Of a stretch of DNA of 4,279 nucleotides, positions 1-4,279 are shown piece after piece. Every line of letters begins with the position of its first letter. Position 1 is the stretch's first letter. Source of the stretch: a virus (lineage: Duplodnaviria; Heunggongvirae; Uroviricota; Caudoviricetes); the IMG/VR virus record IMGVR_UViG_2778261058_000012, one strand, 5' to 3'. The translations under genes and the position numbers were made by a program. Under the pieces are notes generated by a model. That model was given only the letters and a program-made list of their open reading frames with translations. It was not told the origin of the DNA and searched no databases.

Positions 1-55
1 TCCTGTTTACCTCTTTCTCAGGAAGTTTAGTCTCCAGGATTCCCGGGGCGGTTCA
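1..55 (-). mobile_element. Terminal inverted repeat and leader of an IS3-family insertion sequence (IS629/IS1203/IS3411-like), partial; the element body lies left of the window
   Basis: Minus-strand reading of 1..55 is TGAACCGCCCCGGGAATCCTGGAGACTAAACTTCCTGAGAAAGAGGTAAACAGGA: it begins with the TG dinucleotide typical of IS3-family ends and has a GAGG Shine-Dalgarno at the window edge where the orfA start codon would follow. Matches my recollection of the IS629 left end; not verified by search. Confidence 0.55.
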
Positions 56-76
56 CATCGCCTTTTGCTGCTTCAT
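56..76 (-). pseudogene. hokD: hokD/relF toxin gene remnant: first 7 codons (MKQQKAM) only, cut by the IS insertion
   Basis: Minus strand ATG AAG CAG CAA AAG GCG ATG (76..56) encodes MKQQKAM, the N-terminus of HokD as I recall it; the next triplet is the TGA that is also the first 3 nt of the IS inverted repeat. Position is immediately downstream of relE, as in the relB-relE-hokD operon. Confidence 0.5.
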
Positions 77-147
77 AGCCTGCTTCTCCTGTCAACGCAA
101 AGCAGAAGTGTCACCTTCGGTGCGAAACAGAGATGTCATGCTTTGGT

Positions 148-435
148 TCAGAGAATGCGTTTGACCGCCTCGCTATATACTTCCGAGCGTTCTCTTTTCC
201 CAACAGAAATCACGAAAACGACAACTTTCTCGTCTATAACCTGGTATACAAGGCGATAGCCTGAAGACCGGAGCTTAATCTTGTAACAATCAGGCATACC
301 ACGGAGCTTGTTTGCTTCAATCCGGGGTGACTCAAGTACTTCAACCAGCTTCTTTTTCAACTGTTCACGTACCGTCGAGCCCAGCTTTCGCCATTCCTTT
401 AGTGCCCGCTCGTCAAAATCCAGAAAATACGCCAT
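148..435 (-). CDS. relE: RelE mRNA interferase toxin (ribosome-dependent endoribonuclease), 95 aa
   Basis: Translation MAYFLDFDERALKEWRKLGSTV...VISVGKRERSEVYSEAVKRIL is essentially E. coli RelE; start overlaps the relB stop (TGATG), the usual TA operon arrangement. Confidence 0.95.
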   Translation of the reverse strand: MAYFLDFDERALKEWRKLGSTVREQLKKKLVEVLESPRIEANKLRGMPDCYKIKLRSSGYRLVYQVIDEKVVVFVISVGKRERSEVYSEAVKRIL

Positions 436-674
436 CAGAGTTCATCCAGCGTCACACGTACTGGCTTAGGATTACGAAGCCGTTCTTTCACTATCTCCAC
501 AAGTTCAGCATCTTCATCACTCAGGAGTGTCTGTTTGAACGGCAAGCGTTCATTGTCAGCGATATACTCGAGCATGAGACGAAGCGCTTCAGAAGGAGTT
601 ACACCCATTTTTTCAAGCGCGGCGTAAGAACGCGCTTTAAGTTCATCGTCAATACGCAGGTTAATGCTACCCAT
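435..674 (-). CDS. relB: RelB antitoxin, 79 aa
   Basis: Translation MGSINLRIDDELKARSYA...NPKPVRVTLDEL matches E. coli RelB; GAGGTG Shine-Dalgarno 7 nt upstream of the ATG; 1-nt overlap with relE. Confidence 0.95.
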   Translation of the reverse strand: MGSINLRIDDELKARSYAALEKMGVTPSEALRLMLEYIADNERLPFKQTLLSDEDAELVEIVKERLRNPKPVRVTLDEL

Positions 675-682
675 GTCTTACA

Positions 683-740
683 CCTCTTGTAATTACAAAT
701 GTCATTACAAGTATCGCACTACAACATGCTTAGGGCAAGT
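683..740 (-). promoter_or_regulatory. relBE promoter with relO operator (inverted hexad repeats overlapping -10 and transcription start)
   Basis: Minus strand reads TTGCCC (-35, plus 734..739) - 17 nt - GATACT (-10, plus 710..715) - TTGTAATGACATTTGTAATTACAAGAGGTGTAAGAC-ATG; the TTGTAAT/ATTACAA inverted repeats are the RelB2-RelE binding sites known for this operon. Confidence 0.7.
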
Positions 741-992
741 CACGAAGGAAGTCAGAAAGTAGTCGTAAGAACGGTGATCACTGTCCGCTTTGTGCCAGGA
801 GCAGCCATTGCTAAGTCCATCCTGTATTGTGCAGGTCAGCTCGTTTTTAAAGAGTCCGGCCATCATCTTACTGGTACAGACACCATATACTTTGTGACGG
901 TCAGGCTACATATGCACAACTCAACTTATTCATCTATTTTTTGCTTTAGCATGTCAGTGTTGCTTTCTCGTCGGCGGGTGGCGGTGACCTGA
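699..992 (+). CDS. Hypothetical small ORF (97 aa) divergent from relB, at the position a ydfV-type prophage ORF would occupy; coding status uncertain
   Basis: Open frame from ATG 699, but the start lies inside the relO operator, there is no convincing Shine-Dalgarno, and the composition is not clearly protein-like. Kept only because it is the sole candidate in the relB-flxA gap. Confidence 0.2.
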   Translation: MSLQVSHYNMLRASHEGSQKVVVRTVITVRFVPGAAIAKSILYCAGQLVFKESGHHLTGTDTIYFVTVRLHMHNSTYSSIFCFSMSVLLSRRRVAVT

Positions 993-1155: not shown

Positions 1156-1182
1156 TAAAGATTTTTTTGTGCATGCCGATAG
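1156..1182 (+). promoter_or_regulatory. Sigma-28 (FliA) class 3 flagellar-type promoter for flxA
   Basis: TAAAGATT (1156..1163) - 11 nt - GCCGATAG (1175..1182) against the sigma-28 consensus TAAAGTTT-N11-GCCGATAA; followed by AGGAG Shine-Dalgarno (1195..1199) and ATG at 1206. Confidence 0.75.
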
Positions 1183-1205
1183 TGCTTTTTTAAAAGGAGA
1201 AATCT

Positions 1206-1538
1206 ATGTCTGTCACAATTCAGGGAAATACCTCAACCGTTATTTCAAACAACTCCGCCCCGGAAGGAACATCAGAAATAGCCAAAATCACAAGACAAAT
1301 TCAGGTGCTGACTGAAAAGCTTGGGAAAATCTCATCGGAAGAGGGGATGACGACACAGCAGAAAAAAGAAATGGCTGCATTGGTACAGAAGCAAATTGAA
1401 AGCCTCTGGGCTCAACTGGAGCAGTTGTTAAGGCAGCAGGCAGAGAAAAAGAATGAAGACGCGACAGTTCAGCCTGATAAAAAAGAAGAGAAAAAAGACG
1501 ATACAAATACCGCTGGCACCATTGATATTTACGTCTAA
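1206..1538 (+). CDS. flxA: FlxA, FliA-regulated prophage protein, 110 aa, function unknown
   Basis: Translation MSVTIQGNTSTVISNNSAPEGTSEIAKITRQIQVLTEKLGK...TIDIYV matches E. coli FlxA as I recall it; strong Shine-Dalgarno; dedicated sigma-28 promoter upstream and terminator downstream. Confidence 0.9.
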   Translation: MSVTIQGNTSTVISNNSAPEGTSEIAKITRQIQVLTEKLGKISSEEGMTTQQKKEMAALVQKQIESLWAQLEQLLRQQAEKKNEDATVQPDKKEEKKDDTNTAGTIDIYV

Positions 1539-1552
1539 GTGACAGCCGTATT

Positions 1553-1576
1553 GTGGCCCTCATCGGGCCACTTTTC
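1553..1576 (+). terminator. Rho-independent terminator of flxA
   Basis: GTGGCCC (1553..1559) / loop TCATC / GGGCCAC (1565..1571) followed by TTTT (1572..1575): GC-rich 7-bp stem plus a T-tract 15 nt after the flxA stop. Confidence 0.7.
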
Positions 1577-1922
1577 GCCATCAGCCTTTTCTTTAAAGAC
1601 ATATTATCTTTGTATCATTTCTGATAGTTAACATTACAAGATATAAGTAATGGACGCACTCCCAATTAGTCTATTTAAATCGCCACGAGTTTAACTGACA
1701 ACCCATGATCAATTATGAATTGCAACTATTTCTGTAGTCACTTTTGTGGGGACAGTCCACAAAACTGCCAACTTCCGCTTCTTGCTCTTAGCGGACATTA
1801 GCATAGGCTATTTACCATAACGCCTCATTACGCGCACCGCCCAGACTGACTCAGCGCGTTTCTGGCATATCCCCGGTAAAACAAGTAACAAACCACCCGA
1901 AAATGAACACCAGAAACGCGAC

Positions 1923-2150
1923 TTAAGAATCTACCCTATGAATGGATATGCACTCAACCGAATCGATCTTGGTTTCAATCTTTTTTATCGGGATCAGGCT
2001 TCTTTTTAGGTAACTTCGGGGGCTTAACTTGCTGATGACTTTGCGTTCGGCGCGTAAGCCAGGGATGGTCAGCTTTAGGTTTAACATAGTATTTTGAGCG
2101 TAAATCAATACGGGCATTATCCACTCGTTCATGGACACTCTTTTCATCAT
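1923..2150 (-). CDS. Hypothetical 75-aa ORF, start overlapping the stop of the O-like gene (ATGA); possibly a remnant of the next replication gene
   Basis: Minus-strand ATGATGA at 2150..2144 gives the stop of the upstream gene and the start of this ORF in one 4-nt overlap. No recognisable family; followed by ORF-free DNA. Confidence 0.25.
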   Translation of the reverse strand: MMKRVSMNEWIMPVLIYAQNTMLNLKLTIPGLRAERKVISKLSPRSYLKRSLIPIKKIETKIDSVECISIHRVDS

Positions 2151-2875
2151 CCAGTGGTAGGCTCTTTTGGTCGCATGATCTCGCCATCATCACTGGCTGC
2201 CTGTTCGTAGAGACCCACGATCCGCCCCCAGATCCACTGCGCACACGCCAAATCCTCCCTGCTACCCCACTGGCGTTTTTTCGCACTAAACACAACCGCG
2301 TCGGAGTTCCGGGTTAAAAAATCCTGTTCAGTCGTCTGCGGGTCCGGTTGCGAAGCTTCCGGACGAAAAGTGTTTTTATTCTCTGTAGTAATCTCTGTTG
2401 TATTCTCTGTAAGATCATCAGGCCATTTTGACCCGATGACATTGGGTCGTTTTGAACCAATGGAGCGTTTCATTTTGACCTCTTCCATCGTGTCATTTTG
2501 ACCTGATGGAGCGGCGCATTTTGAACCGATGGATTCGCTCAATTTGCCACCATCTAAAAGCTCGCTCCCATAGTTGATCGTGTAGAAATTGGTCATATCG
2601 CGCTTTGATTTATTGAGCTTTTCACAACGCAAAAGCCCCAGCGTTTTCAGACTTGCAAACGCGCGCTTTAACGTTGACTCTGACCAGAATGGGAACTGTT
2701 CCAGCCATTGTTCCGTTGTGTTATAAATCCAGCGAACACCATCACATTCCATGCCGGAGTTGGTATCTCTCAACCAGTAGTGCAGTTGTTGCAAAACAAT
2801 GGCTTCGTTTAAGCCAATTTTCATTGCCAGCTGCGTGTTTATAACCAGTGGGCGTTCAGCAAAAAGAAGGCTCAT
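2147..2875 (-). CDS. Phage replication initiator, functional analogue of lambda O (iteron-binding origin protein); start assigned to ATG at 2875, alternatives TTG 2929 or ATG 2824
   Basis: Third gene of the dicC-led minus-strand operon, the position of lambda O. The coding sequence contains five direct repeats that translate to repeated IGSK-containing peptides (SESIGSK..RSIGSK..NVIGSK), followed by an AT-rich repeat block, the hallmark of an origin embedded in an O-type gene. The ORF-track start at 2929 is TTG and overlaps the upstream gene by 74 nt; ATG 2875 overlaps by 20 nt. Confidence 0.65.
   Translation of the reverse strand: MSLLFAERPLVINTQLAMKIGLNEAIVLQQLHYWLRDTNSGMECDGVRWIYNTTEQWLEQFPFWSESTLKRAFASLKTLGLLRCEKLNKSKRDMTNFYTINYGSELLDGGKLSESIGSKCAAPSGQNDTMEEVKMKRSIGSKRPNVIGSKWPDDLTENTTEITTENKNTFRPEASQPDPQTTEQDFLTRNSDAVVFSAKKRQWGSREDLACAQWIWGRIVGLYEQAASDDGEIMRPKEPTTG
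2378..2412. repeat. AT-rich block with three tandem 12-bp repeats (TCTCTGT-NGTA-N) flanking the iterons; candidate DNA-unwinding element
   Basis: TCTCTGT at 2380, 2392 and 2404, within TGTTTTTATTCTCTGTAGTAATCTCTGTTGTATTCTCTGTAAGA; encodes the repetitive peptide TENTTEITTENKNT. Iterons followed by an AT-rich tract is the same order as in lambda ori. Confidence 0.45.
2423..2555. repeat. Iteron array (candidate prophage replication origin) inside the O-like gene
   Basis: Direct repeats with core CATTTTGA(C/A)C starting at 2424, 2448, 2471, 2494 and 2517 (period 23-24 bp, about two helical turns), plus a degenerate sixth copy AATTTGCCACCATC at 2541..2554. The fuller consensus CATTTTGA(C/A)C(C/T)GATGG is met by the first, fourth and fifth copies only. 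Confidence 0.65.
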
Positions 2876-3377
2876 AATTCCATCCAGCTTTTTGTTGGTA
2901 TTGCTGTCGATACGCAAGTTTGAAAGCAATTGCTTTTTCTATAAGTTCGTCAGTTTCACGATCCACTACGGCAGGATCAGCAAAAAGCAGTCCGGACTCC
3001 ACCACATCGCCATATTCTTTGTTTAACCCGGCGATCATGCACGTGATGCTTTTTCCGTCAGTAATTTCACGATACAACCTGAAATCATTAATCCGGATAG
3101 CCTCCATAATTGCAGGCACTAGCGCCGTGAACTTTTCACGCTTATCCCTGGTGTCGATAGCCTTCCAGCGTTCAAATATCTTCACTCGATTAACGCCAAG
3201 CGCTCGCTGATCAATCGCGCCACCTTCATATGTGACACGCTGAACATCGATGTTCGGGCGCTCTTTCAAAGCCCAGAATGCTTCAGTGATTAATATCGTC
3301 GCCTGCTCCTGTGTCATTCCTGGTCGACATATCCAGGCATCCAGAGCCTCACGAGCCTGTTCAGGAGTGATTTTCAT
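2856..3377 (-). CDS. YdaT-family protein (CII-position regulator, toxic on overexpression in Rac), 173 aa
   Basis: Second gene of the operon, overlapping the dicC 3' end by 17 nt. Begins MKI and has an internal KREKFTALVPAIMEAI segment resembling the REK..LIPAIL region I recall from Rac YdaT; the family assignment rests on recalled similarity and synteny (cro-like, then ydaT-like, then replication gene). Confidence 0.5.
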   Translation of the reverse strand: MKITPEQAREALDAWICRPGMTQEQATILITEAFWALKERPNIDVQRVTYEGGAIDQRALGVNRVKIFERWKAIDTRDKREKFTALVPAIMEAIRINDFRLYREITDGKSITCMIAGLNKEYGDVVESGLLFADPAVVDRETDELIEKAIAFKLAYRQQYQQKAGWNYEPSFC

Positions 3378-3591
3378 TGTTCAACCGCCCCGCCCGCTTC
3401 GTCTTACGATATTCATCATAAACTTTGGGATCATACTGAAGCTCCCCGCCAGATGCCTCCTGTAGACGCATCGCGCGACCTTCGGGAACTAAATCCCCTT
3501 TCCAGCTATAAAGCGAAGCCAAACGAATACCTGCTGCTTGTGCAAGTTTTGTTTTTGAACCGAAATACAAAAGAGCGTCAGTTTTAAGCAT
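3361..3591 (-). CDS. dicC: DicC, Cro-like transcriptional regulator of the prophage immunity region, 76 aa
   Basis: Translation MLKTDALLYFGSKTKLAQAAGIRLASLYSWKGDLVPEGRAMRLQEASGGELQYDPKVYDEYRKTKRAGRLNNENHS matches E. coli DicC as I recall it; AAGGTG Shine-Dalgarno; divergent from dicA. Confidence 0.9.
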   Translation of the reverse strand: MLKTDALLYFGSKTKLAQAAGIRLASLYSWKGDLVPEGRAMRLQEASGGELQYDPKVYDEYRKTKRAGRLNNENHS

Positions 3592-3674
3592 TTAAAACAC
3601 CTTTATTGTTAGTCATAACTAACAAGATAGATGTTAACAAAAACATAGTCAATACGATTTAGCATTAGCTAACT
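3592..3674. promoter_or_regulatory. Divergent dicC/dicA promoter-operator region
   Basis: 83-bp AT-rich intergenic region with a 20-bp palindrome TTGTTAGT-CATA-ACTAACAA (3606..3625) and a second partial palindrome ATGTT-AACAAAA-ACAT (3631..3646), the type of operator that DicA and DicC would be expected to bind. Confidence 0.6.
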
Positions 3675-4082
3675 ATGGAAACAAAAAATTTAACTATCGG
3701 CGAACGCATCAGGTATCGTCGGAAAAACCTCAAACACACCCAAAGGTCTCTTGCTAAAGCCCTGAAAATCTCCCATGTGTCTGTATCACAATGGGAACGG
3801 GGTGATAGTGAACCTACAGGGAAGAACCTTTTTGCCCTCAGCAAAGTATTGCAATGCTCACCAACATGGATTCTATTTGGCGATGAAGACAAGCAACCAA
3901 CACCACCTGTTGAGAAGCCAGTTGCCTTATCCCCCAAAGAACTAGAGCTCCTTGAGCTGTTTAATGCACTGCCAGAATCAGAACAGGATACCCAGCTCGC
4001 CGAAATGCGAGCTCGAGTAAAAAACTTCAATAAACTCTTTGAAGAATTACTAAAAGCCCGTCAGCGGACAAATAAAAGATAA
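3675..4082 (+). CDS. dicA: DicA, cI/C2-like HTH repressor of the prophage (represses the dicB cell-division-inhibitor operon), 135 aa
   Basis: Translation METKNLTIGERIRYRRKNLKHTQRSLAKALKISHVSVSQWERGDSEPTGKNLFALSKVLQCSPTWILFGDEDK... matches E. coli DicA as I recall it; N-terminal XRE-type HTH. Confidence 0.95.
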   Translation: METKNLTIGERIRYRRKNLKHTQRSLAKALKISHVSVSQWERGDSEPTGKNLFALSKVLQCSPTWILFGDEDKQPTPPVEKPVALSPKELELLELFNALPESEQDTQLAEMRARVKNFNKLFEELLKARQRTNKR

Positions 4083-4116
4083 CATCATCAATGAGTTATC
4101 TTTTACCACATCAATT

Positions 4117-4176
4117 ATGTTAGCTATAGCATACAAAATCACTTGACCGATATGTTAGTCATGGCTAATCTTGTTT
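4117..4176 (+). promoter_or_regulatory. Candidate repressor-controlled promoter for the operon downstream of dicA (dicB-operon promoter position)
   Basis: TTGACC (4143..4148) - 17 nt - TAATCT (4166..4171); the spacer/-10 carries the near-palindrome TTAGTCATGGCTAA (4155..4168), closely related to the 3609..3622 operator, and a second site TGTTAGCTATAGCATACA lies at 4118..4135. Confidence 0.45.
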
Positions 4177-4248
4177 GCATCAACACACCGCACGGTGTTC
4201 TCAGCAAACAGTTCCGCTACCCCAGCGTTAAGGGGAAATGAGGTCAGC

Positions 4249-4279
4249 ATGGATACTATCGATCTTGGCAACAACGAAT
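4249..4279 (+). CDS. ydfA: 5' end of the first gene after dicA (small YdfA-like prophage protein), partial; continues beyond the window
   Basis: GAGGT Shine-Dalgarno (4239..4243) then ATG at 4249, reading MDTIDLGNNE...; position and N-terminus are consistent with my recollection of ydfA following dicA in Qin, but only 10 codons are visible. Confidence 0.4.
   Translation, partial: MDTIDLGNNE

Follow-up and report, generated by a model that had tools for sequence, protein, structure and literature searches.

An intact relBE locus identical to that of Escherichia coli K-12 in a Qin-like prophage, and its possible carriage by an ISEsa1-family unit inserted at hok genes

Identification of the relBE genes

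A 4279-bp stretch of viral DNA (IMG/VR record IMGVR_UViG_2778261058_000012; termed the window below) was analyzed for the toxin-antitoxin module relBE, which a first-pass annotation had placed at positions 148 to 740. With high confidence, this segment was identified as the canonical relBE locus of Escherichia coli, identical to the copy in the Qin prophage of strain K-12 and very probably functional.

The relE gene (148-435, minus strand) encodes a 95-amino-acid (aa) toxin, a ribosome-dependent mRNA endonuclease, and relB (435-674, minus strand) encodes a 79-aa ribbon-helix-helix antitoxin and autorepressor; both assignments were based on open reading frames, family models and identity to PDB sequences. 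RelE was identical to "Toxin relE" of PDB 4V7K over 95/95 residues (100% identity) and likewise to RelE of 4FXE, and RelB was identical to chain A of 4FXE over 79/79 residues (100% identity). In the family searches, RelE scored 51 bits against PF05016 of Pfam (cut-off 23) and 54.7 bits against TIGR02385 RelE_StbE (cut-off 27.9). RelB scored 112 bits against PF04221 of Pfam, 133 bits against the NCBIfam equivalog NF008412 (cut-off 96), and 77.7 bits against TIGR02384 (cut-off 45.65). Direct reading of the translated relE gene showed both Tyr87 and Arg81 to be in place. The genes are arranged in the order relB then relE and share one nucleotide in the motif TGATG (437-433), where the relB stop codon TGA (437-435) overlaps the relE start codon ATG (435-433), an arrangement (translational coupling) expected of relBE-type type II systems. 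The earlier description of two full-length genes with a 1-nt start/stop overlap was thus accurate on both counts. A Shine-Dalgarno sequence, GAGGTG (681-686, minus strand), was read 6 nt upstream of the relB ATG and is the same in K-12.

An in-register comparison with E. coli K-12 MG1655, corresponding to the alignment that had been suggested as a check of the module, revealed no mismatch between window positions 55 and 980 (100% DNA identity). The first differences were found on the left at positions 51 and 54, inside foreign insertion sequence (IS) DNA, and on the right at a 1-bp deletion between 980 and 981 in ydfV. The window therefore has the K-12 version of the relBE coding sequences and their overlap, of the relB Shine-Dalgarno sequence, of the operator and promoter, and of the 240 bp upstream. 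The relBE segment was common to about 1200 of the 5426 complete E. coli genomes. By every available sequence test, the module belongs to the RelBE family and is the K-12 allele itself. The identity of genes and control elements to those of K-12 also upholds the proposal that the module is probably functional, and the sequence holds nothing that speaks against relBE function.

No match for RelE, RelB, or the YdaT-like and O-like proteins of the window was obtained with PADLOC, so that the module is not filed under any catalogued defence system. A search of the whole window against Rfam at permissive E-values retrieved no RNA family, and hence no sok-like or other known small RNA.

Operator, promoter and predicted regulation

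The relO operator (687-710) was located by a motif scan and by reference to its published architecture, and consists of four abutting hexads that form two 12-bp half-sites with no spacer. Hexads of the form [A/T]TGT[A/C]A occupy 687-692 (+), 693-698 (-), 699-704 (+), and 705-710 (-); the half-site at 687-698 (TTGTAA/TTACAA) is a perfect palindrome and that at 699-710 (ATGTCA/TTACAA) is a pseudo-palindrome. Taken over the whole window, the hexad occurs about as often as expected (11 matches versus 10.8), and the signal is the contiguous alternating array: with a probability of roughly (1/1024)^4 per position, four hexads in an alternating row are not a chance occurrence. The published relO has the same design, with four 6-bp repeats in two 12-bp half-sites, one perfect and one pseudo-palindromic, without spacing; it spans -10 to +17 and overlaps the -10 box, as defined by mutagenesis and hydroxyl-radical footprinting, and mutations of the -10 box at -10 to -7 have been published (PMC2812701).

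Based on the published relO coordinates, the putative relBE promoter was placed at 710-738 (minus strand), with a -35 hexamer TTGCCC (738-733), a 17-nt spacer and a -10 hexamer GATACT (715-710). The transcription start would accordingly fall near position 703, as placed from the published -10 to +17 span. With only 8/12 consensus positions matched, this promoter escaped a generic sigma-70 scan. With an array at 687-710 identical to that of K-12, the intact promoter and hexad-repeat operator noted previously were confirmed.

A near-consensus sigma-70-like promoter (TTGACA, 16 nt, AATAAT; 11/12 consensus positions) was also present at 1074-1047 (minus strand). It is antisense to ydfV and faces relBE, the start of which is about 340 nt further downstream. 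Transcripts longer than the relBEF operon, and a residual transcript after deletion of the relBEF promoter, have been reported (PMC3598666), and the sigma-70-like promoter at 1074-1047 might explain both.

The identical RelE protein is known to enter the ribosomal A site and to cut mRNA there, and the C-terminal region of RelB wraps around RelE and pushes aside the toxin's C-terminal helix, which bears the catalytic Tyr87 (PMC3507626). An R81A mutant of relE was used in the operator study, in which RelB dimers were reported to bind the four relO hexads via the ribbon-helix-helix N-terminus and regulation was described as conditional cooperativity, RelE co-repressing the operon when RelB is in excess and derepressing it when RelE is in excess (PMC2812701). 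RelB is degraded by Lon, and translation stress leads to induction of the operon and release of RelE (PMC3507626; PMC2812701). Given the sequence identity, relBE in the present strain would act as in K-12.

Truncation of hokD downstream of relE

The native operon contains three genes, relB-relE-hokD ("relBEF"), and relBE is co-transcribed with relF/hokD (PMC3598666; PMC5120126). In the window, alignment of the K-12 annotation together with direct reading identified a hokD (relF) remnant of 7 codons, MKQQKAM (56-76, minus strand), which starts at position 76 and is followed by a TGA codon (55-53) that comes from the terminus of an IS3-family element. The left end of this element, comprising the terminal repeat and 5' leader, occupies 1-55 (minus strand) in the same orientation as relBE, and the A of its transposase ATG is window base 1. 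A coding sequence annotated as "IS3 family transposase" with a programmed frameshift (locus L005) starts at the base aligned with window base 1, and a 56-nt query from the element had 100% matches to IS3-family copies in 3266 E. coli genomes. The IS end at 1-55 may resemble that of IS629/IS1203. The IS-disrupted toxin gene that had been noted on this side of relBE was thereby identified as hokD. The IS-hokD junction was present in 0/5426 complete E. coli genomes and had no exact match in a contig scan of one genome per species.

A scan of the window found no terminator-like site between relE (148) and the IS; in K-12, the first terminator-like hairpin is located about 70 nt beyond hokD. Insertion of the IS after hokD codon 7 would thus abolish the third cistron of relB-relE-hokD and part relBE from its native terminator. 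Since the relE-to-IS stretch holds no terminator-like site, relBE transcripts would probably run into the IS, and transcription of relBE induced by stress could extend into the transposase gene of the IS.

These features were considered in light of the possibility that relBE is intact in sequence and functionally altered, with loss of hokD and of the native 3' end changing the level or stability of the mRNA or the RelB:RelE ratio, and with possible read-through into the transposase. Such an alteration is conceivable, and it accords with the co-transcription of relBE and hokD, the differential accumulation of the relBEF transcript's 3' part (PMC3598666), the location of the K-12 hairpin past hokD, and the orientation of the IS transposase gene. 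We nonetheless regard it as rather unlikely, because relB and relE keep their K-12 coding sequences and coupling, and every 5' control element is likewise that of K-12. Many IS elements, moreover, block read-through translation of their own transposase.

The assignment of a canonical and functional relBE locus is to be weighed against several observations: the promoter hexamers are weak and their assignment leans on published coordinates; the 3' part of the native operon (hokD and the hairpin) is displaced by the IS, which could alter mRNA stability or the RelB:RelE ratio; and the window stops 55 nt into the IS, so that the remaining IS and the distal part of hokD lie beyond the contig end.

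Structure and target site of the relBE unit

The flanks suggest that relBE arrived inside a small transposon inserting just upstream of hok toxin genes, and relBE is probably not a classical phage moron. On balance, we favor a reading in which relBE is the constant "head" of an ISEsa1-family transporter element, 3.3 kb in length with ydfV-flxA or 4.6-6.1 kb in length with other cargo, that inserts site-specifically into, and duplicates, the 15-bp stretch from the Shine-Dalgarno sequence to the "AT" of the start codon of hok genes in prophages and plasmids. In the present case, relBE-ydfV-flxA would be the passenger of an ISEsa1-family unit that entered a Qin-like prophage at the leader of hokD.

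The left end of the unit is marked by an outer terminal inverted repeat, TGTCAACGCAAAGCAGAAGTGTCACCTT (90-117, plus strand), which matched the reverse complement of the ISEsa1 right end at 21/28 positions, anchored at both termini (P about 4e-8 with p=0.25). The ends of the unit are TGT...ACA, with TGTCAACGC... on the left at window position 90 and ...GGTGTTAACA on the right, found in complete copies only. Immediately outside the repeat, the 15-bp sequence ATAGCCTGCTTCTCC (75-89) corresponds to the hokD Shine-Dalgarno sequence through the "AT" of ATG and represents the left copy of the target duplication. The right copy is deleted in the window. In the Qin-like loci L001 and L003, which belong to the VG35A2 and PhiR42_1 prophages, ATAGCCTGCTTCTCC is perfect on both sides of the unit.

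The window retains the left 2.07 kb of the unit (90-2159), made up of the outer repeat, the passenger genes and a 388-bp part of the transposase module. This remnant of an ISEsa1-family (IS1202 family) transposase module (1772-2159, minus strand) was delimited by alignment to the complete copies L004, L001 and L012; its inner boundary reads CTTCCGC in the window versus TGTCCGC in the diverged L012. Complete copies encode a 446-aa transposase with helix-turn-helix and rve_3 domains, of which the window holds a remnant alone. What is annotated in K-12 as the gene "ydfW" (window 1975-2124, minus strand) represents the C-terminal end of this ISEsa1-family transposase gene.

Comparison of the L004 and L008 plasmids revealed that relE-relB-ydfV-flxA-transposase constitutes a 3301-bp insertion in the hok/mok locus of L004, with the hok Shine-Dalgarno/start region directly duplicated on its two sides, and that the hok/mok locus of L008 is uninterrupted. 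The duplication measures 14-15 bp in L004 and 15/16 bp with a single indel in L012, and perfect 15-bp duplications flank the unit in L001, L003, L013, L018 and L031. The duplicated sequence is that of the resident hok allele in each case: the IncI plasmid duplicates its own allele at the same position (ATCATAGCCCCTCCA), as do the IncF-type plasmids (ATGGCCTTCTTCTCC). An origin of the 15-17-bp L004 repeat by homologous recombination between hok alleles was considered and rejected, because each lineage perfectly duplicates the sequence of its own allele. The several different hok target alleles point to movement of the unit. On the leader side, the neighbour of the insertion site in every hok allele is TGCCTTNCGGC, which may be a candidate recognition motif of the transposase. 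At one locus, the same hok site carries the unit in the opposite orientation, as seen from one side only.

Flanks that do not match were found in the L014 plasmid, which was taken as a recombinant of the type that recombination between hok alleles predicts. The plasmid copies at L009, L010 and L011 were also tried for the ISEsa1 boundaries and proved uninformative: one flank is hok-leader DNA, the other is rearranged, and there is no duplication. A 535-bp contig filed under Streptomyces sp. E11-3 (scaffold268; L028) contains an enterobacterial hok-relE junction at over 99% identity and is most likely an assembly contamination.

The reconstructed empty hokD site was contiguous at 99% identity in 4023 of the 5426 complete E. 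coli genomes, with a single ATAGCCTGCTTCTCC copy. An example is BL21(DE3) (L016, 3942-4359), where rem, hokD, leader, DUF977, O, ydaT, cro and cI follow one another and relBE, ydfV, flxA and the transposase are lacking from the locus. The empty hokD with an intact leader is the commoner state, and the K-12 arrangement (about 1200 genomes) is derived.

Distribution of the unit and its second cargo type

Plasmids from Klebsiella, Enterobacter, Citrobacter, Salmonella, E. coli and others, about 680 in number, were found to carry the relBE DNA at 99-100% identity, usually together with ydfV, flxA and a complete ISEsa1-family transposase gene. The units on IncF, IncI and IncHI-type plasmids have the same outer terminal repeat as the window, 58 nt past the relE stop codon, and many contain ydfV-flxA. 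They differ from the window in that they are usually complete with an intact 446-aa transposase, and in that they are located in plasmid hok/mok/sok or pnd-like loci and not in hokD.

In a second cargo type (L012, 1913-6512; L018), genes for cation efflux (CDF) and cytochrome b561 replace ydfV-flxA. These units are 4.6-6.1 kb in length, including one copy of 6093 bp with an IS110-family insertion. The relBE genes and the outer repeat are retained in the second cargo type at 98.8% identity, and the transposase module at about 89-91% identity, a gap indicating that the unit is mosaic. A 1.6-kb transposase module with its own boundary is common to both cargo types, which is a caveat on the transposon reading.

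The likeness to the IS1202 family, or "transporter IS" (ISEsa1, tISKpn21, ISAjo2), includes the annotation of the transposase as ISEsa1-family, the 5'-TGT...ACA-3' ends described for that family (Harmer and Hall, 2023; PMC10132070) and imperfect terminal repeats in the 20-nt range. The family is one in which target duplications can be long and insertion can be target-site specific (PMC10132070). The relBE unit differs from ISEsa1 as listed in being 3.3 kb in length, having a 15-bp duplication and a left end beyond relE, and targeting the hok Shine-Dalgarno-ATG region and not a dif-like site. ISEsa1 has been listed as an element of 1609 bp for which neither a duplication was detectable nor a target known (PMC10132070), a listing with which the transposon reading conflicts.

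With regard to the Hok family, hokD is a Hok-family gene, and the hokD leader of the empty site is homologous to the hok/mok leader of plasmids. Unlike typical Hok loci, relBE-carrying genomes have the hok open reading frame parted from its leader and co-transcribed with relBE, and in the window the hok open reading frame itself is also destroyed.

Phage moron or transposon passenger

The first-pass annotation had described relBE as a typical moron in a defective prophage. A classical moron would be an autonomous promoter-to-terminator relBE cassette, gained by the phage between two phage genes, with flxA and hokD as independent neighbours. Several features fit this description: a promoter of its own drives relBE, whose expression in K-12 does not depend on the lytic programme of the phage (PMC2812701); it is placed between the replication genes and the Q antiterminator, a usual moron site; and it is present in K-12, VG35A2 and PhiR42_1 but absent at the same position from the related BL21(DE3) prophage. 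The variable presence expected of a moron was therefore found, whereas an own terminator and freedom from the hallmarks of mobile elements were not. relE is not followed by a terminator-like site, and the segment is accompanied by the TGT-ended 28-nt repeat at 90-117, the 15-bp duplication of the hokD Shine-Dalgarno-ATG region and a transposase gene at the far end. On plasmids, the unit occupies the corresponding site of other hok alleles, and hokD with its leader represents pre-existing phage cargo; GC content, in addition, does not separate the relBE segment from its flanks. Because flxA is inside the insertion, it is not an independent neighbour. Acquisition as a classical moron is consequently improbable, and carriage of relBE by the ISEsa1-family unit is preferred.

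Integration of relBE into hokD from plasmids was reportedly proposed by Ramisetty and Santhosh in 2016 (FEMS Microbiol Lett). Earlier work placed relBE in Qin and suggested integration next to hokD from plasmids (PMC6379469). No description linking ISEsa1 with relBE or hok was found in the searchable literature, much of the literature being outside its coverage.

Neighbouring genes and the Qin-like prophage

Upstream of relB and divergent from it, ydfV (699-992, plus strand) encodes 97 aa versus 101 aa in K-12 owing to the 1-bp deletion at 980/981. No Pfam or NCBIfam family was assigned to ydfV, and no database entry was retrieved for the frameshifted YdfV. The ydfV ATG (699-701) is located inside the third relO hexad, and transcription of ydfV and binding of RelB would therefore interfere mutually.

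The flxA transcription unit (1156-1575, plus strand) consists of a promoter, a coding sequence (1206-1538) and a terminator-like hairpin. Its sigma-28 promoter, TAAAGATTTTTTTGTGCATGCCGATAG (1156-1182, plus strand), was matched once in the window versus 0.03 matches expected, and TAAAGATTTTTTTGTGCATGCCGATAG is the exact FliA site identified in K-12 by chromatin immunoprecipitation (PMC4183435). The hairpin, read from the sequence as GTGGCCC-TCATC-GGGCCAC followed by TTTT (1553-1575), is 3' of flxA, and the product matches the FlxA family of Pfam (PF14282). The gene under control of a host sigma factor that had been noted on this side of relBE is thus the FliA-dependent flxA, with a sigma-28 promoter identical to that of K-12.

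A megablast search against the 5426 complete E. coli genomes identified the setting as a Qin-like lambdoid prophage, in which the annotated order in K-12 MG1655 and VG35A2 is rem, hokD, relE, relB, ydfV, flxA, ydfW, (ydfX), dicC, dicA, ydfA. Pfam matches in the window included HTH_3/Phage_CI_repr (dicA, cI-like), P22_Cro (dicC, cro-like) and YdaT_toxin. The genes follow the lambdoid immunity/replication order of dicA, dicC, a ydaT-like gene and an O-like gene, and the wider locus includes Q, lysis and integrase genes. The YdaT_toxin match was weak (24 bits) and concerned a 173-aa gene upstream of the O-like gene that overlaps dicC by 17 nt. In the stretch 2147-3377, the O-like replication protein is identical to that of PhiR42_1 over 239/239 residues and then ends, at 242 aa versus 321 aa for the full-length protein.

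The window and the K-12 Qin prophage share identical RelE and RelB proteins, identical DNA at 55-980 (from the hokD start to most of ydfV), and the neighbours ydfV, flxA with its sigma-28 promoter, the "ydfW" IS remnant, dicC and dicA. They differ in that the window has hokD cut after codon 7 by the IS3-family element and a 1-bp deletion in ydfV, and in that K-12 has a larger rightward deletion: window positions 2165-3097 are missing from K-12, where just the "ydfX" fragment is left. The deletion junction of the window was placed at 2150-2164 from the blastn breakpoints (46-2159 and 2150-4279), and about 1.9 kb of sequence present in VG35A2 and phage PhiR42_1 is absent there. Missing as a result are the remaining transposase module, the right copy of the target duplication, the leader of hokD, the DUF977 gene and the O-like gene's 3' end. 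The left breakpoint near 2159-2164 is common to the window and K-12 but the right breakpoints differ, a pattern suggestive of nested deletions that began at the IS. The truncated O-like gene, the IS remnant and the frameshifted ydfV are signs of decay, in agreement with the defective nature of the prophage that had been proposed.

Among 50,697 phage records, relBE was found in one, PV340562.1 (L003; PhiR42_1, host ECOR13). PhiR42_1 has a 48.7-kb Qin-like genome with a complete relBE unit and a hokD-type leader to the right of the transposase, and complete-looking, relBE-carrying Qin-like phages may thus still exist.

The window itself represents a whole draft contig of 4279 bp, as the reverse complement of NLNZ01000118.1 (GCA_002229985.1). 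It is base-for-base identical to the end of the 117-kb contig NLOO01000007.1 (GCA_002229605.1; L006), which runs on into ydfA, dicB and genes for an exonuclease and an integrase. Although exactly 55 nt of the IS at the end of a draft contig is what a de Bruijn assembler with k=55 would leave at a repeat, it is highly improbable that the IS-hokD junction is a contig-end artefact with hokD really intact, because two independent draft assemblies have the same junction, a contig reaching k bases into a repeat means that reads span the junction, and an intact hokD, being unique sequence, would have assembled straight through.

Significance

The presence of relBE in a Qin-like prophage is in itself already known, as a textbook locus for which the K-12 structure, operator and regulation have been worked out. 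The value of the present locus is that of an intact, correctly recognized toxin-antitoxin module in a strain in which hokD has been knocked out by an IS.

If the transposon reading holds, it would provide a mechanism for the spread of relBE among prophages and hundreds of conjugative plasmids throughout the Enterobacterales, and would explain the odd relB-relE-hokD operon together with the truncated state of hokD. The relBEF operon of K-12 would have been made by an insertion that cut hokD from its mok/sok leader and placed it under the relBE promoter, and flxA would be transposon cargo. The same reading would supply the target duplication and target site reported missing for ISEsa1, their absence arising because the true left end is beyond relE, and relBE may be the element's own addiction module.

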